In this document: positions 1-28,122 of the stretch, piece by piece
Layout of the letters: each line of letters opens with the position of its first letter
Position numbering within the stretch: the first letter of the stretch is position 1
From: Escherichia coli O127:H6 str. E2348/69
GTDB lineage: Bacteria > Pseudomonadota > Gammaproteobacteria > Enterobacterales > Enterobacteriaceae
Direction: 5' to 3' (one strand)
Length of the DNA: 64,000 nucleotides
Assembly: GCF_000026545.1 (NCBI RefSeq)
Contig: NC_011601.1
Notes under the pieces: model-generated
What the model was told of the DNA's origin: nothing
Databases searched by the model: none
What the model saw: only the letters and a program-made list of their open reading frames with translations
Program-made: the position numbers and the translations under genes

Positions 1-215
1 AGCAGGGCGCTTTTATCCTGTCAGTTCGTTTTACGCACTTCTTCCGGGCTATACACCCTTCTCGGCAGTTTTTTAACGCCGCTATACGCCTCACAGAGCG
101 CTGTAACCTGTAAAGTACAATATCGCTGTGTGTAGGCGTTATACATCGTCGCAAATATGATGAAGGACAATGCTGCCGGTTTATGGAAAAGTTCTTTTGG
201 GAAAACAAAAAACGG

Positions 216-227
216 CCCCAGAAGGGG
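216..227. repeat. 12-bp target-site duplication (left copy, ccccagaagggg) flanking the IS4-like element
   Basis: Identical 12-mer ccccagaagggg directly abuts both ends of the element (216-227 and 1372-1383). Confidence 0.8.
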
Positions 228-1371
228 TAATGCCAGTCAGTTAAGCAACTGACTGGCTCTTTTTCGGGGCTGTGGGGTATTTCCAGGGCCTCTCCTTTAC
301 CACTCTCGGGAAGGCCCTTTCCCTTCTTGTCGGTAATTTCACTAGTTGTCCCATACTTGCAAGATCGCGCATCAGCTCCGGTATACGTCCCGGTGAAGCG
401 CATGGCGTCCGTCATCGATGTCAGCAGATGGCAGACTTTTCCTTTGCGCGTCACGGTCAGCAGGCGGGCTGTCACCTCATTTCCCAGTCCCGGCCACTTT
501 TTTCGTGCCTGCGGGCTGGTTTTCAGCTTCACCAGATGATCGCCTTTACCCAGTTTTCTGATCTCTTCATATTGCGCTCCCTTTCTGAGAGGGAACATCC
601 AGTGGCGGTGTTCTCCCGCCAGGCTCCAGGTATTTAACAGTCCTGGTGAGTAATAACCTTTATTCATTAACGTCAGGGTGTTATCGCCGGTTTGTTCTAT
701 AAGTTGCTCAGCAAGCTCATTTCCGCTGTTCTTCATCGTGCCGAAGGCTGCAGTCGTCAGCAGATGGCTGGTCAGTTCCATCTGGCAGACCATTTTGACC
801 TGCGGGTAGAGCGCCGGGTTCCCGGCATGTGTCTGGCGGGGGAAGGCTGCATCGTTCTCTGGTGTATCCGGTGTGCGCCAGAACACACCATCGATGGCCA
901 GCAGGGTCAGGCCGCACCAGTGCGGATGCGGCGTGGCGTTATGCCAGAGCTGCGCTGTTTTCGTGAACACGCGGCGGACAGCCTCAATTCCCAGACGCTA
1001 GCGGGTCTGAATAACGGCACTGGGGCAACGAAGGGGCGATTGCCCGGCAGCATGATGTCCAGGCGATTCACAATCTGGTGAAGAGGTTCTTTACGCTCAA
1101 GCGCCATGCCAACAATACACCAGACCATCATTTCGAGGGGAAGACGGCGCTTGCGTAGCGTTACAGTACCTGATTCGGCAAGGCAACGAGAGATGAGTTC
1201 GGGGTCGAGGTAATCCCCCAGAGAAGTCAGTGGGTTACGCAGAGAATCGTAACGGGATACCAAACCAAGGGCCTGTCCAATGAGCATAAAAAAATCCGGA
1301 AACGAGTGAGCGTTTCCGGATTCTTACACAGCCACTGGAGCGGTCAACTGATCCTTAACTGACTGGCATTA
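228..1371 (-). mobile_element. IS4-family insertion sequence, internally deleted copy (about 1.14 kb)
   Basis: Terminal inverted repeats taatgccagtcagttaag (228-245) and cttaactgactggcatta (1354-1371); encodes an InsG-like transposase; flanked by a 12-bp direct repeat. Confidence 0.85.
241..1287 (-). pseudogene. IS4 transposase (InsG-like) pseudogene: in-frame TAG near 1004-1006 and about 0.28-kb internal deletion removing the YREK catalytic region
   Basis: Minus-strand translation matches recalled InsG N-terminus (MLIGQALGLVSRYDSLRNPLTSLGDYLDPELISRCLAESGTVTLRKRRLPLEMMVWCIVGMALERKEPLHQIVNRLDIMLPGNRPFVAP...) and C-terminus (...PELMRDLASMGQLVKLPTRRERAFPRVVKERPWKYPTAPKKSQSVA*); reading frame is broken between. 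Confidence 0.8.
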
Positions 1372-1383
1372 CCCCAGAAGGGG
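1372..1383. repeat. 12-bp target-site duplication (right copy)
   Basis: ccccagaagggg repeated; with the IS removed, the flanks rejoin as aacggcccc-agaa-ggggccgtt, a perfect hairpin plus T-run on the adhE strand. Confidence 0.8.
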
Positions 1384-1412
1384 CCGTTTATGTTGCCAGA
1401 CAGCGCTACTGA

Positions 1413-4088
1413 TTAAGCGGATTTTTTCGCTTTTTTCTCAGCTTTAGCCGGAGCAGCTTCTTTCTTCGCTGCAGTTTCGCCTTCTACATAATCACGACCG
1501 TAGTAGGTATCCAGCAGAATCTGTTTCAGCTCGGAGATCAGCGGGTAACGCGGGTTAGCGCCGGTGCACTGGTCATCGAATGCATCTTCAGACAGTTTAT
1601 CCACGTTCGCCAGGAAGTCTGCTTCCTGAACGCCAGCTTCACGGATAGATTTCGGAATACCCAGTTCAGCTTTCAGCGTTTCCAGCCATGCCAGCAGTTT
1701 CTCGATCTTAGCTGCAGTACGGTCGCCCGGTGCGCTCAGACCCAGGTGGTCAGCAATTTCAGCATAACGACGGCGAGCCTGCGGACGGTCATACTGGCTG
1801 AATGCAGTCTGCTTGGTCGGGTTGTCATTCGCGTTGTAGCGAATAACGTTACAAATCAGCAGGGCGTTTGCCAGACCGTGCGGAATATGGAACTGGGAAC
1901 CCAGTTTGTGCGCCATTGAGTGACATACACCCAGGAAGGCGTTCGCAAACGCGATACCCGCGATAGTCGCTGCACTGTGAACACGTTCACGCGCTACCGG
2001 ATTTTTAGACCCTTCGTGGTAGGACACTGGCAGATATTCTTTCAGTAGTTTCAGTGCCTGCAGAGCCTGACCATCAGAGAACTCAGATGCCAGTACAGAA
2101 ACATAAGCTTCCATGGCGTGAGTTACTGCGTCCAGACCACCGAAAGCACACAGGGACTTCGGCATGTCCATAACAAGGTTGGCGTCGACAATCGCCATAT
2201 CCGGGGTCAGTGCATAGTCTGCCAGCGGATATTTCTGACCAGTAGTGTCGTCAGTTACAACCGCAAACGGAGTGACTTCAGAACCTGTACCGGAAGTGGT
2301 GGTGACAGCGATCATTTTCGCTTTCACACCCATTTTCGGGAACTTGTAGATACGTTTACGGATATCCATAAAGCGCAGCGCCAGTTCTTCGAAGTGAGTT
2401 TCCGGATGTTCGTACATAACCCACATGATCTTCGCAGCGTCCATCGGGGAACCACCACCCAGCGCGATAATCACGTCTGGTTTGAAGGAGTTTGCCAGTT
2501 CTGCACCTTTACGAACGATGCTCAGGGTCGGGTCAGCTTCTACTTCGAAGAAGACTTCAGTTTCAACGCCTGCTGCTTTCAATACGGAAGTGATCTGATC
2601 AGCATAACCATTGTTGAACAGGAAGCGGTCAGTCACGATGAGCGCACGTTTGTGGCCATCAGTAATCACTTCATCCAGCGCGATTGGCAGGGAGCCACGG
2701 CGGAAGTAGATAGATTTCGGAAGTTTGTGCCACAACATGTTTTCAGCTCGCTTAGCAACGGTTTTCTTGTTGATCAGGTGTTTCGGACCAACGTTTTCAG
2801 AGATGGAGTTACCACCCCAGGAACCACAACCCAGAGTCAGGGAAGGTGCGAGTTTGAAGTTATACAGGTCACCGATACCACCCTGAGAAGCCGGGGTGTT
2901 AATCAGGATACGAGCCGTTTTCATTTTCTGACCGAAGTAAGAAACGCGAGCCGGTTGGTTATCCTGGTCAGTGTACAGGCAAGAGGTATGACCGATACCG
3001 CCCATAGCAACCAGTTTCTCTGCTTTTTCTACCGCGTCTTCGAAATCTTTAGCACGGTACATTGCCAGAGTCGGGGACAGTTTTTCATGTGCGAACGGTT
3101 CGCTTTCATCAACAACGGTCACTTCGCCGATCAGAATCTTGGTGTTTTCTGGTACAGAGAAGCCTGCCAGTTCAGCAATTTTATAGGCTGGCTGACCAAC
3201 GATAGCCGCGTTCAGCGCACCGTTTTTCAGGATAACGTCCTGAACAGCTTTCAGCTCTTTACCCTGCAACAGATAGCCGCCGTGGGTTGCGAAACGTTCA
3301 CGTACTGCGTCATAAACAGAGTCAACAACAACAACAGACTGTTCAGAAGCACAGATTACACCGTTGTCGAAGGTTTTGGACATCAGTACAGATGCAACTG
3401 CACGTTTGATATCAGCAGTTTCATCGATAACAACCGGAGTGTTGCCCGCGCCTACGCCGATAGCTGGTTTACCGGAGCTGTATGCGGCTTTAACCATGCC
3501 CGGACCACCAGTCGCGAGGATCAGGTTGATGTCTGGGTGGTGCATCAGTGCGTTAGACAGTTCAACAGAAGGTTGATCGATCCAGCCGATCAGATCTTTC
3601 GGAGCACCGGCAGCGATAGCAGCCTGTAGAACGATATCAGCCGCTTTGTTGGTTGCATCTTTTGCACGCGGGTGCGGGGAGAAGATAATGGCGTTACGGG
3701 TCTTCAGGCTGATCAGCGATTTGAAGATAGCAGTTGAAGTCGGGTTAGTGGTCGGAACGATACCGCAAATAATACCGATGGGTTCAGCGATAGTGATGGT
3801 ACCAAAAGTGTCGTCTTCAGACAGAACACCACAGGTTTTTTCATCTTTATAGGCGTTGTAGATATATTCAGAAGCAAAGTGGTTTTTGATCACTTTATCT
3901 TCGACGATACCCATGCCGGATTCGGCAACGGCCATTTTCGCGAGTGGGATTCGAGCATCTGCAGCAGCCAGAGCGGCGGCGCGGAAGATTTTGTCTACTT
4001 GCTCTTGAGTGAAACTGGCATATTCACGCTGGGCTTTTTTTACACGCTCTACGAGTGCGTTAAGTTCAGCGACATTAGTAACAGCCAT
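1413..4088 (-). CDS. adhE: bifunctional aldehyde/alcohol dehydrogenase AdhE (891 aa)
   Basis: Full-length ORF with N-terminal aldehyde dehydrogenase and C-terminal Fe-alcohol dehydrogenase regions; sequence recognisable as E. coli AdhE. Confidence 0.97.
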
Positions 4089-9521: not shown

Positions 9522-10535
9522 ATGAGCGTAATTGAAACTGCAACTGTGCCGCTCGCACAACAACAGGCTGACGCACTGCTGAACGTGAAAGATTTGCGTG
9601 TCACCTTTAGTACCCCGGATGGCGACGTCACGGCGGTCAATGATTTGAATTTTTCGCTACGTGCCGGAGAAACGCTGGGCATCGTAGGTGAGTCTGGTTC
9701 GGGCAAATCGCAAACCGCATTTGCGTTGATGGGCCTGTTGGCTGCCAACGGACGTATTGGCGGATCGGCAACCTTCAATGGGCGTGAAATCCTCAATTTG
9801 CCAGAGCGTGAACTCAATAAACTGCGAGCTGAACAAATCTCAATGATTTTTCAGGACCCAATGACTTCGTTGAATCCCTATATGCGCGTCGGTGAGCAGT
9901 TGATGGAAGTGCTGATGCTGCATAAGAACATGAGCAAAGCTGAGGCGTTTGAAGAATCGGTGCGGATGCTCGATGCGGTAAAAATGCCGGAAGCGCGTAA
10001 ACGCATGAAAATGTACCCGCACGAATTTTCTGGCGGCATGCGTCAGCGAGTCATGATTGCGATGGCATTGCTATGTCGACCTAAGCTGCTGATTGCGGAT
10101 GAACCCACTACTGCGCTGGACGTCACCGTACAGGCGCAGATCATGACGCTATTGAATGAACTGAAGCGGGAATTTAATACCGCCATCATTATGATTACCC
10201 ACGATCTTGGCGTGGTGGCGGGGATCTGCGACAAAGTGCTGGTAATGTACGCCGGGCGCACGATGGAATATGGCAACGCGCGCGATGTCTTTTATCAACC
10301 CGTACATCCTTATTCTATCGGTTTGCTCAACGCGGTGCCGCGTCTCGATGCGGAAGGTGAAACAATGTTGACTATTCCGGGTAATCCGCCAAACCTGCTG
10401 CGATTACCGAAAGGTTGCCCGTTCCAGCCACGTTGTCCGCATGCGATGGACATTTGTAGTAGCGCACCGCCGCTGGAAGAGTTTACGCCTGGCCGTCTGC
10501 GTGCTTGCTTTAAACCGGTGGAGGAACTGTTATGA
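9522..10535 (+). CDS. oppD: oligopeptide ABC transporter ATP-binding protein OppD
   Basis: Walker A GESGSGKS, ABC signature LSGG-like FSGGMRQR, Walker B LLIADEP. Confidence 0.95.
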   Translation: MSVIETATVPLAQQQADALLNVKDLRVTFSTPDGDVTAVNDLNFSLRAGETLGIVGESGSGKSQTAFALMGLLAANGRIGGSATFNGREILNLPERELNKLRAEQISMIFQDPMTSLNPYMRVGEQLMEVLMLHKNMSKAEAFEESVRMLDAVKMPEARKRMKMYPHEFSGGMRQRVMIAMALLCRPKLLIADEPTTALDVTVQAQIMTLLNELKREFNTAIIMITHDLGVVAGICDKVLVMYAGRTMEYGNARDVFYQPVHPYSIGLLNAVPRLDAEGETMLTIPGNPPNLLRLPKGCPFQPRCPHAMDICSSAPPLEEFTPGRLRACFKPVEELL

Positions 10536-18434: not shown

Positions 18435-18790
18435 GCACTCTCCTTGAGTTTTATGCAGGTGTTAATTAGCGGGCAATTGTACCCTGGTTAAGCCTCGGGT
18501 GGCAGCATCAGGTCTTGTATGGAAAAGCATATCTTTGTAAAGCGGAGGTAATTGCTGGCCTTCAGGCGTGGGCAAATCGCGGCAAGTGGCGAACGAGTTA
18601 ATATTTGCGTAGCGAAAATATTTAAAAATTGATTTAAATCACATTAACCAGGATTTTCAATGCAACTTCTAAATTAATCCAGATCAATAAAGGGTGAATT
18701 ATCATATGTAATGTGATCTATGTAGGATCATTTGTTACTCCAATGTAGGTATATTCGTCACGTTTTTATAACCATAACGACGGAGCGGAT

Positions 18791-19429
18791 ATGAAAAAGT
18801 TAACAGTGGCGGCTTTGGCAGTAACAACTCTTCTCTCTGGCAGTGCCTTTGCGCATGAAGCAGGCGAATTTTTTATGCGTGCAGGTTCTGCAACCGTACG
18901 TCCAACAGAAGGTGCTGGTGGTACGTTAGGAAGTCTGGGTGGATTCAGCGTGACCAATAACACGCAACTGGGCCTGACGTTTACTTATATGGCGACCGAT
19001 AACATTGGTGTGGAATTGCTGGCAGCGACGCCGTTCCGCCATAAAGTTGGCACAGCCACTACCGGGGATATTGCGACTGTCCACCATTTACCGCCAACAC
19101 TGATGGCACAATGGTATTTTGGCGATTCAGGCAGTAAATTCCGTCCTTACATTGGTGCGGGTATTAACTACACCACCTTTTTTAATAATGACTTCAATGA
19201 CACCGGTGAAGGTCTTGGTTTATCTGACCTTAGTCTGAAGGATTCATGGGGCGTGGCGGGGCAAGTAGGTCTGGATTATCTCATCAACCGTGACTGGTTG
19301 CTGAATATGTCGGTCTGGTACATGGATATCGATACCACGGCTAAGTACAAATCTGGTGTTACTACCGTAAAAGACTCGGTACGACTGGATCCGTGGGTGT
19401 TTATGTTCTCCGCAGGATATCGTTTTTAA
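18791..19429 (+). CDS. ompW: outer-membrane protein OmpW
   Basis: 212 aa, signal peptide MKKLTVAALAVTTLLSGSAFA, beta-barrel with C-terminal ...GYRF. Confidence 0.95.
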   Translation: MKKLTVAALAVTTLLSGSAFAHEAGEFFMRAGSATVRPTEGAGGTLGSLGGFSVTNNTQLGLTFTYMATDNIGVELLAATPFRHKVGTATTGDIATVHHLPPTLMAQWYFGDSGSKFRPYIGAGINYTTFFNNDFNDTGEGLGLSDLSLKDSWGVAGQVGLDYLINRDWLLNMSVWYMDIDTTAKYKSGVTTVKDSVRLDPWVFMFSAGYRF

Positions 19430-19433
19430 TTTT

Positions 19434-19468
19434 CTCTGCAAAACCTCTGCAAAACCCCTCTGCAAAAC
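19434..19468. repeat. three tandem 11-bp repeats (ctctgcaaaac) at the chromosome/prophage junction; candidate attL / integrase-binding region
   Basis: Copies at 19434-19444, 19445-19455 and 19458-19468, between the ompW stop and the int stop. Confidence 0.5.
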
Positions 19469-19492
19469 TGGTCATCAAATGACCAGTTTTTT
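19464..19492. terminator. hairpin with flanking A/T runs shared by ompW (+) and int (-) 3' ends
   Basis: aaaa-ctggtca-tcaaa-tgaccag-tttttt; overlaps the last codons of int. Confidence 0.6.
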
Positions 19493-20605
19493 CCATTCCT
19501 TACCGCGTGCGTCGTTGTAAATATCGGTCATTTTTTGATTCGAATGGCCTAGCAAAATTTTGGTATCAACCCCCTGCTCTCTGAACAATCGCTCTGATAA
19601 AGATCTCTGCTCATGGAAAGAGGGAGGGGTGCCATTAGCACGCCAGTTGTAATCCACAGAATCCCGGGCTTTTTTAAATGCAACGGTTAATGTTGCTGGC
19701 TTAACCATCCCGCCGCGCTTAGCTGTCCCTTTCGCGTGATGGTGGTGCAATAGCCACGGACTAAGAACGCAATCGCGGCAGGATGACACCACATCATCCA
19801 GGGTGAGATTTAATTTATCGCAACGCAGAGCCAGAGGGATGGCAATCCGGGTTCCTGTTTTTTGCTGTTCGACATGAAGATAACCATCCCGGATATCCGA
19901 AAATTGCATTTTGCAAATATCTGAAAGGCGCTGGCCTGTCATCAGTGCCAGCAGCATACCTCGCTGTAAAAAGTAACCATCCTTTTCCGCTGCGTTATAA
20001 ATCATCATCCACTCATCAAAAGTCAGTCGCTGTCTTGATATCCGCACCTGCGGTTTTTTTGCCGATTCTGCAGGGTTAAAGCCTGGCGGGACATCGCCCG
20101 TTTGCTGAGCTTCCCGGAAAACATCGATCAGTACTTTCCTGAAAATTTGTCCCATTCTGTTATGTCCTCTGGCCTTGTACTCTTCCAGTACTGATACCAC
20201 ATCTTTTACGGTTATGGCATCTAACGGTCTGGTGCCAAAACGTTCATCAAATACCCTGAGAGGGGCCGCTTTCTGTTTCAGCGTGTTGAGTTTGATCTCG
20301 CCGTTTTTATATCTTTCCTGTTGAATTTTTCTGTAATTATTCAGAAAAATGGTAACGGTTGATGAACCGCCGGTATCACTAATAATTTTCTCCTGCAGAC
20401 TGAGCATTTGTTCCATTTGCTGCCGGGCAAGACGGCTGTTCGCTTCTGCTGCAATAGTTTCTGCCAGTTTCTGGTCAATACTGCCGAGACCGTGATTTTT
20501 GCCTGTTATGGGATGCCTGTAACGCCAGTAAACTTTGTTATTTCTTTTGTCAAAATACGGAGATAATCCCGGAACATCGGTTTTATATTTTCGCGGGCGC
20601 GCCAT
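19475..20605 (-). CDS. int: phage integrase, lambda-Int-like tyrosine recombinase
   Basis: 376 aa; C-terminus ...LLGHSNQKMTDIYNDARGKEWKKLVI resembles the lambda Int catalytic C-terminus. Confidence 0.92.
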   Translation of the reverse strand: MARPRKYKTDVPGLSPYFDKRNNKVYWRYRHPITGKNHGLGSIDQKLAETIAAEANSRLARQQMEQMLSLQEKIISDTGGSSTVTIFLNNYRKIQQERYKNGEIKLNTLKQKAAPLRVFDERFGTRPLDAITVKDVVSVLEEYKARGHNRMGQIFRKVLIDVFREAQQTGDVPPGFNPAESAKKPQVRISRQRLTFDEWMMIYNAAEKDGYFLQRGMLLALMTGQRLSDICKMQFSDIRDGYLHVEQQKTGTRIAIPLALRCDKLNLTLDDVVSSCRDCVLSPWLLHHHHAKGTAKRGGMVKPATLTVAFKKARDSVDYNWRANGTPPSFHEQRSLSERLFREQGVDTKILLGHSNQKMTDIYNDARGKEWKKLVI

Positions 20606-20831
20606 CTTCCAGTATCCTCTTCAAAGCAGGGTGATCTGTGGCGATCACCTCCGGCTTGTTTACCATTCCGACAAAGCGAGCTTGCGGATCCACTCGCCAG
20701 CGTCTTCCAACTTTTTTGGGGAGAGGAAATATCATTCCGGCTTTAGCGTATTTACTTAACGTACTCGGAGTTGGGACCGGTTCACTGAATTCCTCTTTTG
20801 CCCACTCAGTGAGCAGAATAAGTCTTGCCAT
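20583..20831 (-). CDS. xis: excisionase (Xis-like)
   Basis: 82 aa, overlaps int start; LTEWAK...IFPLPKKVGRRWRV resembles lambda Xis. Confidence 0.7.
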   Translation of the reverse strand: MARLILLTEWAKEEFSEPVPTPSTLSKYAKAGMIFPLPKKVGRRWRVDPQARFVGMVNKPEVIATDHPALKRILEDGAPAKI

Positions 20832-27699: not shown

Positions 27700-28122
27700 G
27701 TGGCAAAAGTTTTTACACAAGAAGAGCGGGAAAAAATTAAAGGGCAGGTTGTTGAACTCGTACGCCAGAGTGGGCGCGAGACGTTACGACAACTGGAAAC
27801 TAAAACTGGGGCAACAAGATATCTGATGAGCGTTCTGGCCAGAGAGCTGGTTGCCAGTGGCGATGTATACAACTCTGGTTACGGGTTATTCCCGTCTGAA
27901 CAGGCGCGTAAGGACTGGCAAAATGCCCGTAAAAAGCTCTCAAGGGCAAAGCTGAAGAAACCATCTGCGGTTGATCCGGACCTTATCTGGTCATTACCTG
28001 ACGGAGAAATACGTCGCTACGACAGGCGTCAGAACATAATCTGTCGCGAGTGCCGGAAGAGCGAAGCTATGCAGCGCGTACTGGCGTTTTATCAGGGGAA
28101 TTTTGAGGAGGTGGTGCGGTGA
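27700..28122 (+). CDS. hypothetical protein with HTH-like segment and CxxC motif
   Basis: 140 aa; ETLRQLETKTGATRYLMSVLARELVASG; ...ICRECRKSE. Confidence 0.45.
   Translation: MAKVFTQEEREKIKGQVVELVRQSGRETLRQLETKTGATRYLMSVLARELVASGDVYNSGYGLFPSEQARKDWQNARKKLSRAKLKKPSAVDPDLIWSLPDGEIRRYDRRQNIICRECRKSEAMQRVLAFYQGNFEEVVR

Follow-up and report, generated by a model that had tools for sequence, protein, structure and literature searches.

Tandem repeats beside the integrase gene of the PPompW prophage of Escherichia coli E2348/69 as probable P' arm-type sites, adjoining a putative phage-borne ompW terminator

The DNA between the stop codons of ompW and int in Escherichia coli O127:H6 E2348/69 contains three tandem copies of CTCTGCAAAAC which are very probably P' arm-type sites of a lambda-like integrase; on the same reading, the hairpin that follows them is a phage-supplied ompW terminator and the crossover takes place upstream, within ompW. 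The window, as the term is used here, is the whole 64-kb stretch of E2348/69 DNA that was analysed, and coordinates refer to it unless another locus is named. The prophage is already known in this strain: it is PPompW, located at the 3' part of ompW and included among the PPompW prophages of STEC and EPEC described by Nakamura et al. 2021 (PMC8112680). Its attachment system is likewise of a well-understood kind, for which a scheme of arm-type and core-type sites has been set out (PMC4880445). The PPompW records and PMC8112680 give a 121-bp imperfect duplication of the ompW 3' end, annotated as att ('duplication due to insertion'), within which the substitute ompW end delimited here falls; the term 'arm-type' occurs 0 times in the text of PMC8112680, which mentions no arm-type sites. 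To this description the present analysis would add the 26 bp over which attL and attR match exactly, an interpretation of the repeats as arm sites, and a proposed terminator. The features concerned are as follows.

18791..19429, + strand, hybrid ompW (ORF; Pfam OmpW, E 2.7e-77)
19311..19336, no strand assigned, att core of 26 bp, CGGTCTGGTACATGGATATCGATACC, identical in attL and attR
19337..19429, + strand, phage-borne substitute ompW 3' end, 30 codons and stop (empty-site and attR comparisons)
19434..19444, + strand, repeat 1, CTCTGCAAAAC, proposed P'1 arm-type integrase site
19445..19455, + strand, repeat 2, CTCTGCAAAAC, proposed P'2 arm-type integrase site
19458..19468, + strand, repeat 3, CTCTGCAAAAC, proposed P'3 arm-type integrase site
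19468..19492, + strand, candidate terminator, hairpin CTGGTCAT-CAA-ATGACCAG and T6 (folding, compensatory change, G·U variants)
19475..20605, - strand, int, lambda-family tyrosine integrase (ORF, Pfam)
20583..20831, - strand, xis, excisionase (Pfam Exc, E 1.3e-7; RefSeq annotation)

The three copies of the 11-mer that a sequence-only reading had placed between the two stop codons are exact, with spacings of 11 and 13, and the last base of the third (19468) is at the same time the first base of the hairpin stem. No further copy with at most one mismatch occurs in the 64-kb window. The array has a TRF score of 52-54, and three exact tandem 11-mers are far beyond chance. A shuffle test, in which three matches at up to one mismatch arose in 14 of 100 shuffles, has no bearing on the array because it scores scattered matches rather than exact tandem copies. 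The repeats are 98-132 bp away from the 26-bp core. The DNA carrying them is present in the attP of a free phage and missing from the empty sites compared; repeats at the same place in prophage-free strains, which would have refuted the earlier reading, were not seen. In nine attL/attP variants the ompW' part differs (including a 15-nt indel), as do the spacers between units, while TCTGCAAAAC is invariant in every repeat unit. Copy number is itself variable: an array of four (spacing 11, 13, 13) occurs in strain 08-3918 (L007 ~1503-1550) and also in O157:H7 Rafaela_II. This form is a small minority, found in 14 records at 99% identity or more to a four-copy query, against some 1,330 with the 13-nt gap that is expected of three copies aligned to such a query. 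As the array exists with three or four copies, tandem slippage contributes to it.

The adjacent integrase carries the domain that such sites would require. Its N-terminus matches the arm-binding domain of Pfam (PF09003, Arm-DNA-bind_1, residues 2-71, E 7.1e-22, 77.7 bits against a cut-off of 22) and residues 193-367 match Phage_integrase; its identity is 36% to lambda Int over the full length and 50.5% to phage 21 Int. The xis gene overlaps the start of int by 23 nt, and int, xis and a recE-like exonuclease gene all lie on the minus strand, converging on ompW. On the opposite (P) arm, the 9-mer CTGCAAAAC is directly observed once, at -135 from the core GGTACATGG and in the same orientation; no second P-arm copy was found. 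This copy is invariant in four diverged P-arm lineages, which can be aligned exactly from it inward and which have no mutual similarity outside it. About 25 bp inward of the 9-mer, at -107, both lineages scanned have a perfect match to the IHF consensus (WATCARNNNNTTR was the form used), namely AATCAATCAGTTA and AATCAGACAGTTA. On the P' side, no IHF consensus at up to one mismatch was found in the 97 bp that separate the core from repeat 1, so that no means of bending the P' arm is evident; this and the single P-arm copy tell against the arm-site reading. The P-arm copy and the far end of the third P' unit are ~290 bp apart.

The same arrangement recurs throughout the integrase family. A scan of viral contigs for two closely spaced copies of CTGCAAAAC returned 120 loci, and an integrase homologue (48-99% identity) is encoded at 32 of them. 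At each of these 32 the motif is present in exactly three copies, with spacing 11+13, on the strand opposite int, and at 31 of them the repeats finish 7-34 nt from the int stop; because the scan was designed to require two copies, what counts as independently observed is the presence of a third, the strand and the proximity to int. The outer flanks of these loci are of many unrelated kinds, corresponding to other insertion sites. A further 89 motif matches have no Int homologue nearby, and in 76 of these the array does not go beyond the two copies that the pattern imposed. Conservation among the integrases is much stronger over the N-terminal 40 residues than over the remainder of the protein. 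Relatives collected by protein or int-DNA similarity, and not by the motif, show the same layout with variant motifs, all of the form ...CAAAAY. They include phage 21 with ev207 and e14, whose units are given further on; the potC-inserting phage 640R1 has three units of the ...TCCAAAAY type, and Klebsiella phage Kp4865-4 has GTTATCAAAAT / TTTATCAAAAC / GTTATCAAAAC, a motif almost that of e14. Viral loci gathered by relatedness are mostly trimmed exactly at the int stop and yield hardly any extra sequence downstream of int. Taken together, this distribution indicates that the motif follows the lineage of the integrase rather than the site of insertion. With the N-terminal domain of Int and the P-arm copy, it makes P'1-P'3 arm-type sites the best explanation of the repeats; of the uses that had been proposed for them, integrase arm sites are thus the best supported, to judge from comparative evidence.

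In common with lambda P'1-P'2-P'3, the repeats are three tandem direct units about one helical turn apart, at the outer P' arm, which abut or overlap the int stop. Lambda also has a matching P-arm site in the same orientation ~130-140 bp out, followed by an IHF site, and its Int has the same Pfam arm-binding domain. The lambda P' units are AGGTCACTAT, CAGTCAAAAT and AAAATCATTA, running up to and over the int stop codon. The two systems differ in motif (CTGCAAAAC in PPompW, C/AAGTCACTAT in lambda), in spacing (11+13 against ~10), in the number of P-arm copies (one detected, against two) and in the distance of the P' sites from the core (~98-132 bp against ~50-80), the last of these because a 93-bp substitute gene end is interposed in PPompW. 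Unlike that of lambda, the PPompW core lies within a protein-coding gene and the candidate terminator hairpin is fused to the last proposed arm site. As a separate observation on the lambda record NC_001416.1, the misc_binding feature 'int 4' (27814-27854; L223 315-355) falls inside the int coding region, while three P'-type units are found at 27785-27814 (L223 286-315); the annotation looks offset.

Two other uses of the repeats have to be weighed, and both are improbable. According to the first, the units bind Xis or IHF instead of Int. In lambda, Xis is another protein that binds tandem direct repeats, an Xis of the lambda type is encoded beside int, and sequence alone cannot tell which protein occupies a site. 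However, the repeats fail to match WATCARNNNNTTR even with one mismatch allowed, which lends no support to the IHF-type sites that the sequence-only reading had offered as an option, and a perfect IHF site is already present in the P arm. The Xis sites of lambda, for their part, are located in the P arm between P2 and the core and not beside int (PMC4880445), whereas the motif considered here is found at the outer edge of the opposite arm as well as at the position of lambda P'1-P'3, a placement which fits bridging by Int. The second, to which similarly little probability is given, holds that the repeats arose by slippage and have no function (a small VNTR), or that they act only at the RNA level in the ompW 3' UTR. 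The existence of arrays with three and with four copies is in its favour, and, should transcription end at the hairpin, the repeats would form part of the ompW transcript. Against this, the motif is invariant where the adjacent coding sequence and the spacers vary, and the triple repeat with its 11+13 spacing is kept beside int down to 48% identity and at unrelated insertion sites. At those sites the repeats are outside any ompW transcript, often beyond the terminator of the host gene. An Rfam search of 18600-19800, with E up to 1, returned nothing.

The position of the crossover follows directly from comparison of the prophage ends with an empty site and a free phage. The empty site of the prophage-free strain SC477 (locus L001) is identical to the window only through 19336; beyond this point its ompW has diverged from the window, although it is still homologous. 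The hybrid ompW is accordingly host-derived up to 19336 and phage-derived from 19337. No attR was found within the 64-kb window, past whose end the prophage continues. It lies ~53.2 kb away in the E2348/69 record NZ_CP059840.2, to which the window is 100% identical, at ~8.5 kb past the window end and beside an ompW remnant, where the counterpart of the core occupies 10167-10142 on the minus strand of locus L003 (the E2348/69 attR region). The core block recurs in the attP of free phage 204576 (CP025907.1) and in the attR of other strains. In this free phage attP is uninterrupted, consisting of P arm, core, substitute ompW end, three repeats, hairpin and int, and it holds all of 19313-19495 contiguous with the P arm. 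Because the empty site matches only to 19336 and the attP of 204576 is contiguous, the DNA from 19337 to int is, by this comparison, phage DNA (the P' arm). Strand exchange must, on the same evidence, fall inside 19311-19336, and inverted hexamers 12 bp apart (GTGGTA/TACCAC) suggest a crossover overlap near 19323-19330.

The sequence-only reading had described 19430-19495 as a candidate attL, with the att core probably inside it. The first part stands in the broad sense that the segment belongs to the phage-derived P' arm; the second does not. That the crossover lies within 19430-19495 is refuted by the attL/attR/attB/attP comparison and is left with practically no probability, its sole support being the place of the segment at the ompW/int junction, while the empty site departs from the window at 19337 and not at 19430, attL and attR share 19311-19336 but nothing in 19430-19495 (absent from both attB and attR), and the attP of the free phage has 19313-19495 whole and joined to the P arm. 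Alignment with attR, which had been put forward as a check, revealed no common core, and the only sequence that attR has in common with 19430-19495 is the single copy of the 9-mer in its P arm.

Two positions of the core are polymorphic, 19312 (A/G) and 19315 (G/C), with counterparts at 10166 and 10163 of L003. Their states agree between attL and attR in both strains read at both ends, being G,C in E2348/69 and A,G in O145 PPompW_132418 (loci L005/L006). Either the alleles of phage and host must match at these positions or the two copies have been homogenised after insertion.

The attR side also bears on the host neighbourhood, which had been framed as an ompW-yciE site. This frame is not applicable to E2348/69, from which yciE/F/G are absent; in L003 7789-10174, IS200C, ISEc13 and trpA come directly after the native ompW remnant. 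In strain SC477, trpA also comes directly after ompW. The interval from yciC to ompW contains a stretch of 90 bp (window ~18462-18551), annotated in RefSeq as a fragment of a YkgJ-family cysteine-cluster gene, which is found in prophage-bearing and prophage-less strains alike.

The core is thus part of the ompW coding sequence and is situated 98 bp upstream of repeat 1. The phage supplies its own ompW 3' end (19337-19429), and ompW is therefore kept intact: the hybrid ORF encodes 212 aa with a full-length OmpW Pfam match and terminates at the stop codon 19427-19429. The substitute end comprises the last surface loop and the last beta-strand and is five codons shorter than the native end of E2348/69, which persists as a 141-bp remnant at attR. 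A core inside a coding region, combined with a substitute 3' end that keeps the gene intact, is the type of insertion exemplified by phage 21 and e14, which insert in the 3' part of a protein-coding gene (icd) and carry a substitute 3' end of it (PMC6379469).

PPompW also resembles phage 21 and e14 in that the substitute gene end is followed, before int is reached, by three tandem repeats of 11-13 bp that end in CAAAAY. In phage 21 and its relative ev207 the three units are TTCCCCAAAAC, with CCCCAAAAC as the phage 21 motif, and the P arm of ev207 has CTTTCCCCAAAAT followed by an IHF consensus; in e14 of K-12 the units are GTTATCAAAAT / TTTATCAAAAA / GTTATCAAAAC. Wang et al. 1997 are said to have set the limits of the phage 21 attP at the outermost of its repeated dodecamers, which they interpreted as arm recognition sites, and reportedly attributed the large size of this attP to the interposed icd segment. 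In contrast to icd, the target of PPompW is ompW, and the 5' half of the motif differs, being CTG in PPompW, CCC in phage 21 and TTAT in e14. The terminator of the host gene precedes the arm sites in phage 21 and e14, whereas in PPompW it would follow them and overlap the int stop. In e14 the repeats are located just past the icd' terminator (L224 ~440-480) and are followed by ~3.2 kb of cargo (C0293, ymfD, ymfE, lit) before intE, which occupies L224 3680 onward, whereas the repeats of phage 21 and of the ompW phages abut int.

The hairpin that had been noted between A and T runs, overlapping the last codons of int, was recovered as described. It is a stem-loop (19468-19486) with an 8-bp stem containing four G-C pairs and a 3-nt loop, preceded by A4 (19464-19467) and followed by T6 (19487-19492). 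The int stop codon (tca on the + strand, 19475-19477) lies inside it, and the three final codons of int, L-V-I, are contained in its right arm. Folded as RNA, it reaches -14.4 kcal/mol (z = -5.7), a value that none of 200 shuffles equalled, and the 25-mer formed by hairpin and T-run is unique in the 64-kb window. Pairing is kept among variants: one has a compensatory C>T/G>A pair, and in two lineages an A>G change yields G·U on the ompW-sense RNA, which on the int-sense RNA would be C·A. Within the integrase family the hairpin occurs only in ompW-inserting phages, including a lineage whose Int is 68% identical. Members of the family that use other sites have a separate hairpin and T-run, placed after the substitute host-gene end and before the arm sites; in this window the interval from the ompW stop to the repeats contains nothing comparable. 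A simple terminator scan did not flag the hairpin, possibly as a result of A4/T4 pairing, which would extend the stem into the T-run. Since the hairpin is confined to ompW-inserting phages and its pairing is kept, it is regarded as a probable phage-borne ompW terminator; these patterns support an intrinsic terminator supplied by the phage, in keeping with the earlier suggestion that the phage reconstructs the ompW terminator. The hairpin may also act on int transcripts, by way of the A-tract on its other side.

In the mechanism that best accounts for these features, 19430-19495 is the outer end of the P' arm of the PPompW attachment site, with crossover in the 26-bp core at 19311-19336. The three CTCTGCAAAAC units would bind the N-terminal arm-binding domain of the adjacent integrase, and recombination would presumably need them. 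Int bound at the P' units and at the single P-arm site, ~130 bp across the core, would then bridge to the core sites, assisted by DNA bending, with IHF acting on the P arm. Assemblies of this sort would constitute the intasomes of integration and of excision, by analogy with lambda and phage 21. The hairpin and T-run would serve as the intrinsic terminator of the rebuilt ompW, supplied by the phage, and could possibly halt oncoming int transcripts as well.

The arm-site reading leaves the understanding of site-specific recombination unchanged. Its use is more local: the true core, the likely arm sites and the extent of attP (~290 bp) give exact prophage boundaries, and an attP so defined offers a testable minimal att site for studies of excision and integration. 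Three tandem 11-13-bp units ending in CAAAAY beside int may also serve as a simple signature for finding the att arms of the phage 21/e14/PPompW integrase family. The ompW junction is present in 1727 of 5426 complete E. coli genomes, about a third, and its carriers include EPEC, O157, O145, O111 and ST131 strains.

The exchange of the ompW 3' end also touches the protein. What is replaced is the part that follows beta-strand 7, which in the usual topology of an 8-strand barrel comprises the last extracellular loop and strand 8 (OmpW structures: 2F1T, 2MHL). The native loop alleles are TANYKLGGAQQHDS and TEVKYKSNGAVLPAGRYSDN (from an alignment including L001 1608-1715 and L006 ~1110-1204), and the phage-borne versions are TAKYKSGVTTVKDS, TAKYKSDGRKLAKGSYSD and TASYKFNGTPVKDA. 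Strand 8 is conserved, and the phage-borne versions differ from each other most in the loop. Integration may thus alter an exposed loop of OmpW. A stronger proposal, that insertion by this phage family amounts to lysogenic conversion of OmpW, with a new last loop, last strand, 3' UTR and terminator, is speculative and on balance rather unlikely. If it is true, lysogens could differ in the OmpW surface that they expose to colicin S4, phages or antibodies, and the ompW mRNA 3' end could behave differently. The arm sites would in that case be part of the ompW 3' UTR, and int would be shielded from convergent ompW transcription by a bidirectional terminator that the two genes share.

The PPompW prophage family bears type III effector loci. 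A 21-bp secondary attB, GTCATGCAGTTAAAGTGGCGG, is the insertion target of Stx and other phages (PMC8112680). In the E2348/69 prophage it is located near the right end, at L003 ~10497-10477 on the minus strand, ~330 bp inside attR, and the genes just inside it are the effector genes nleA, nleH1-2 and nleF and an espO fragment.
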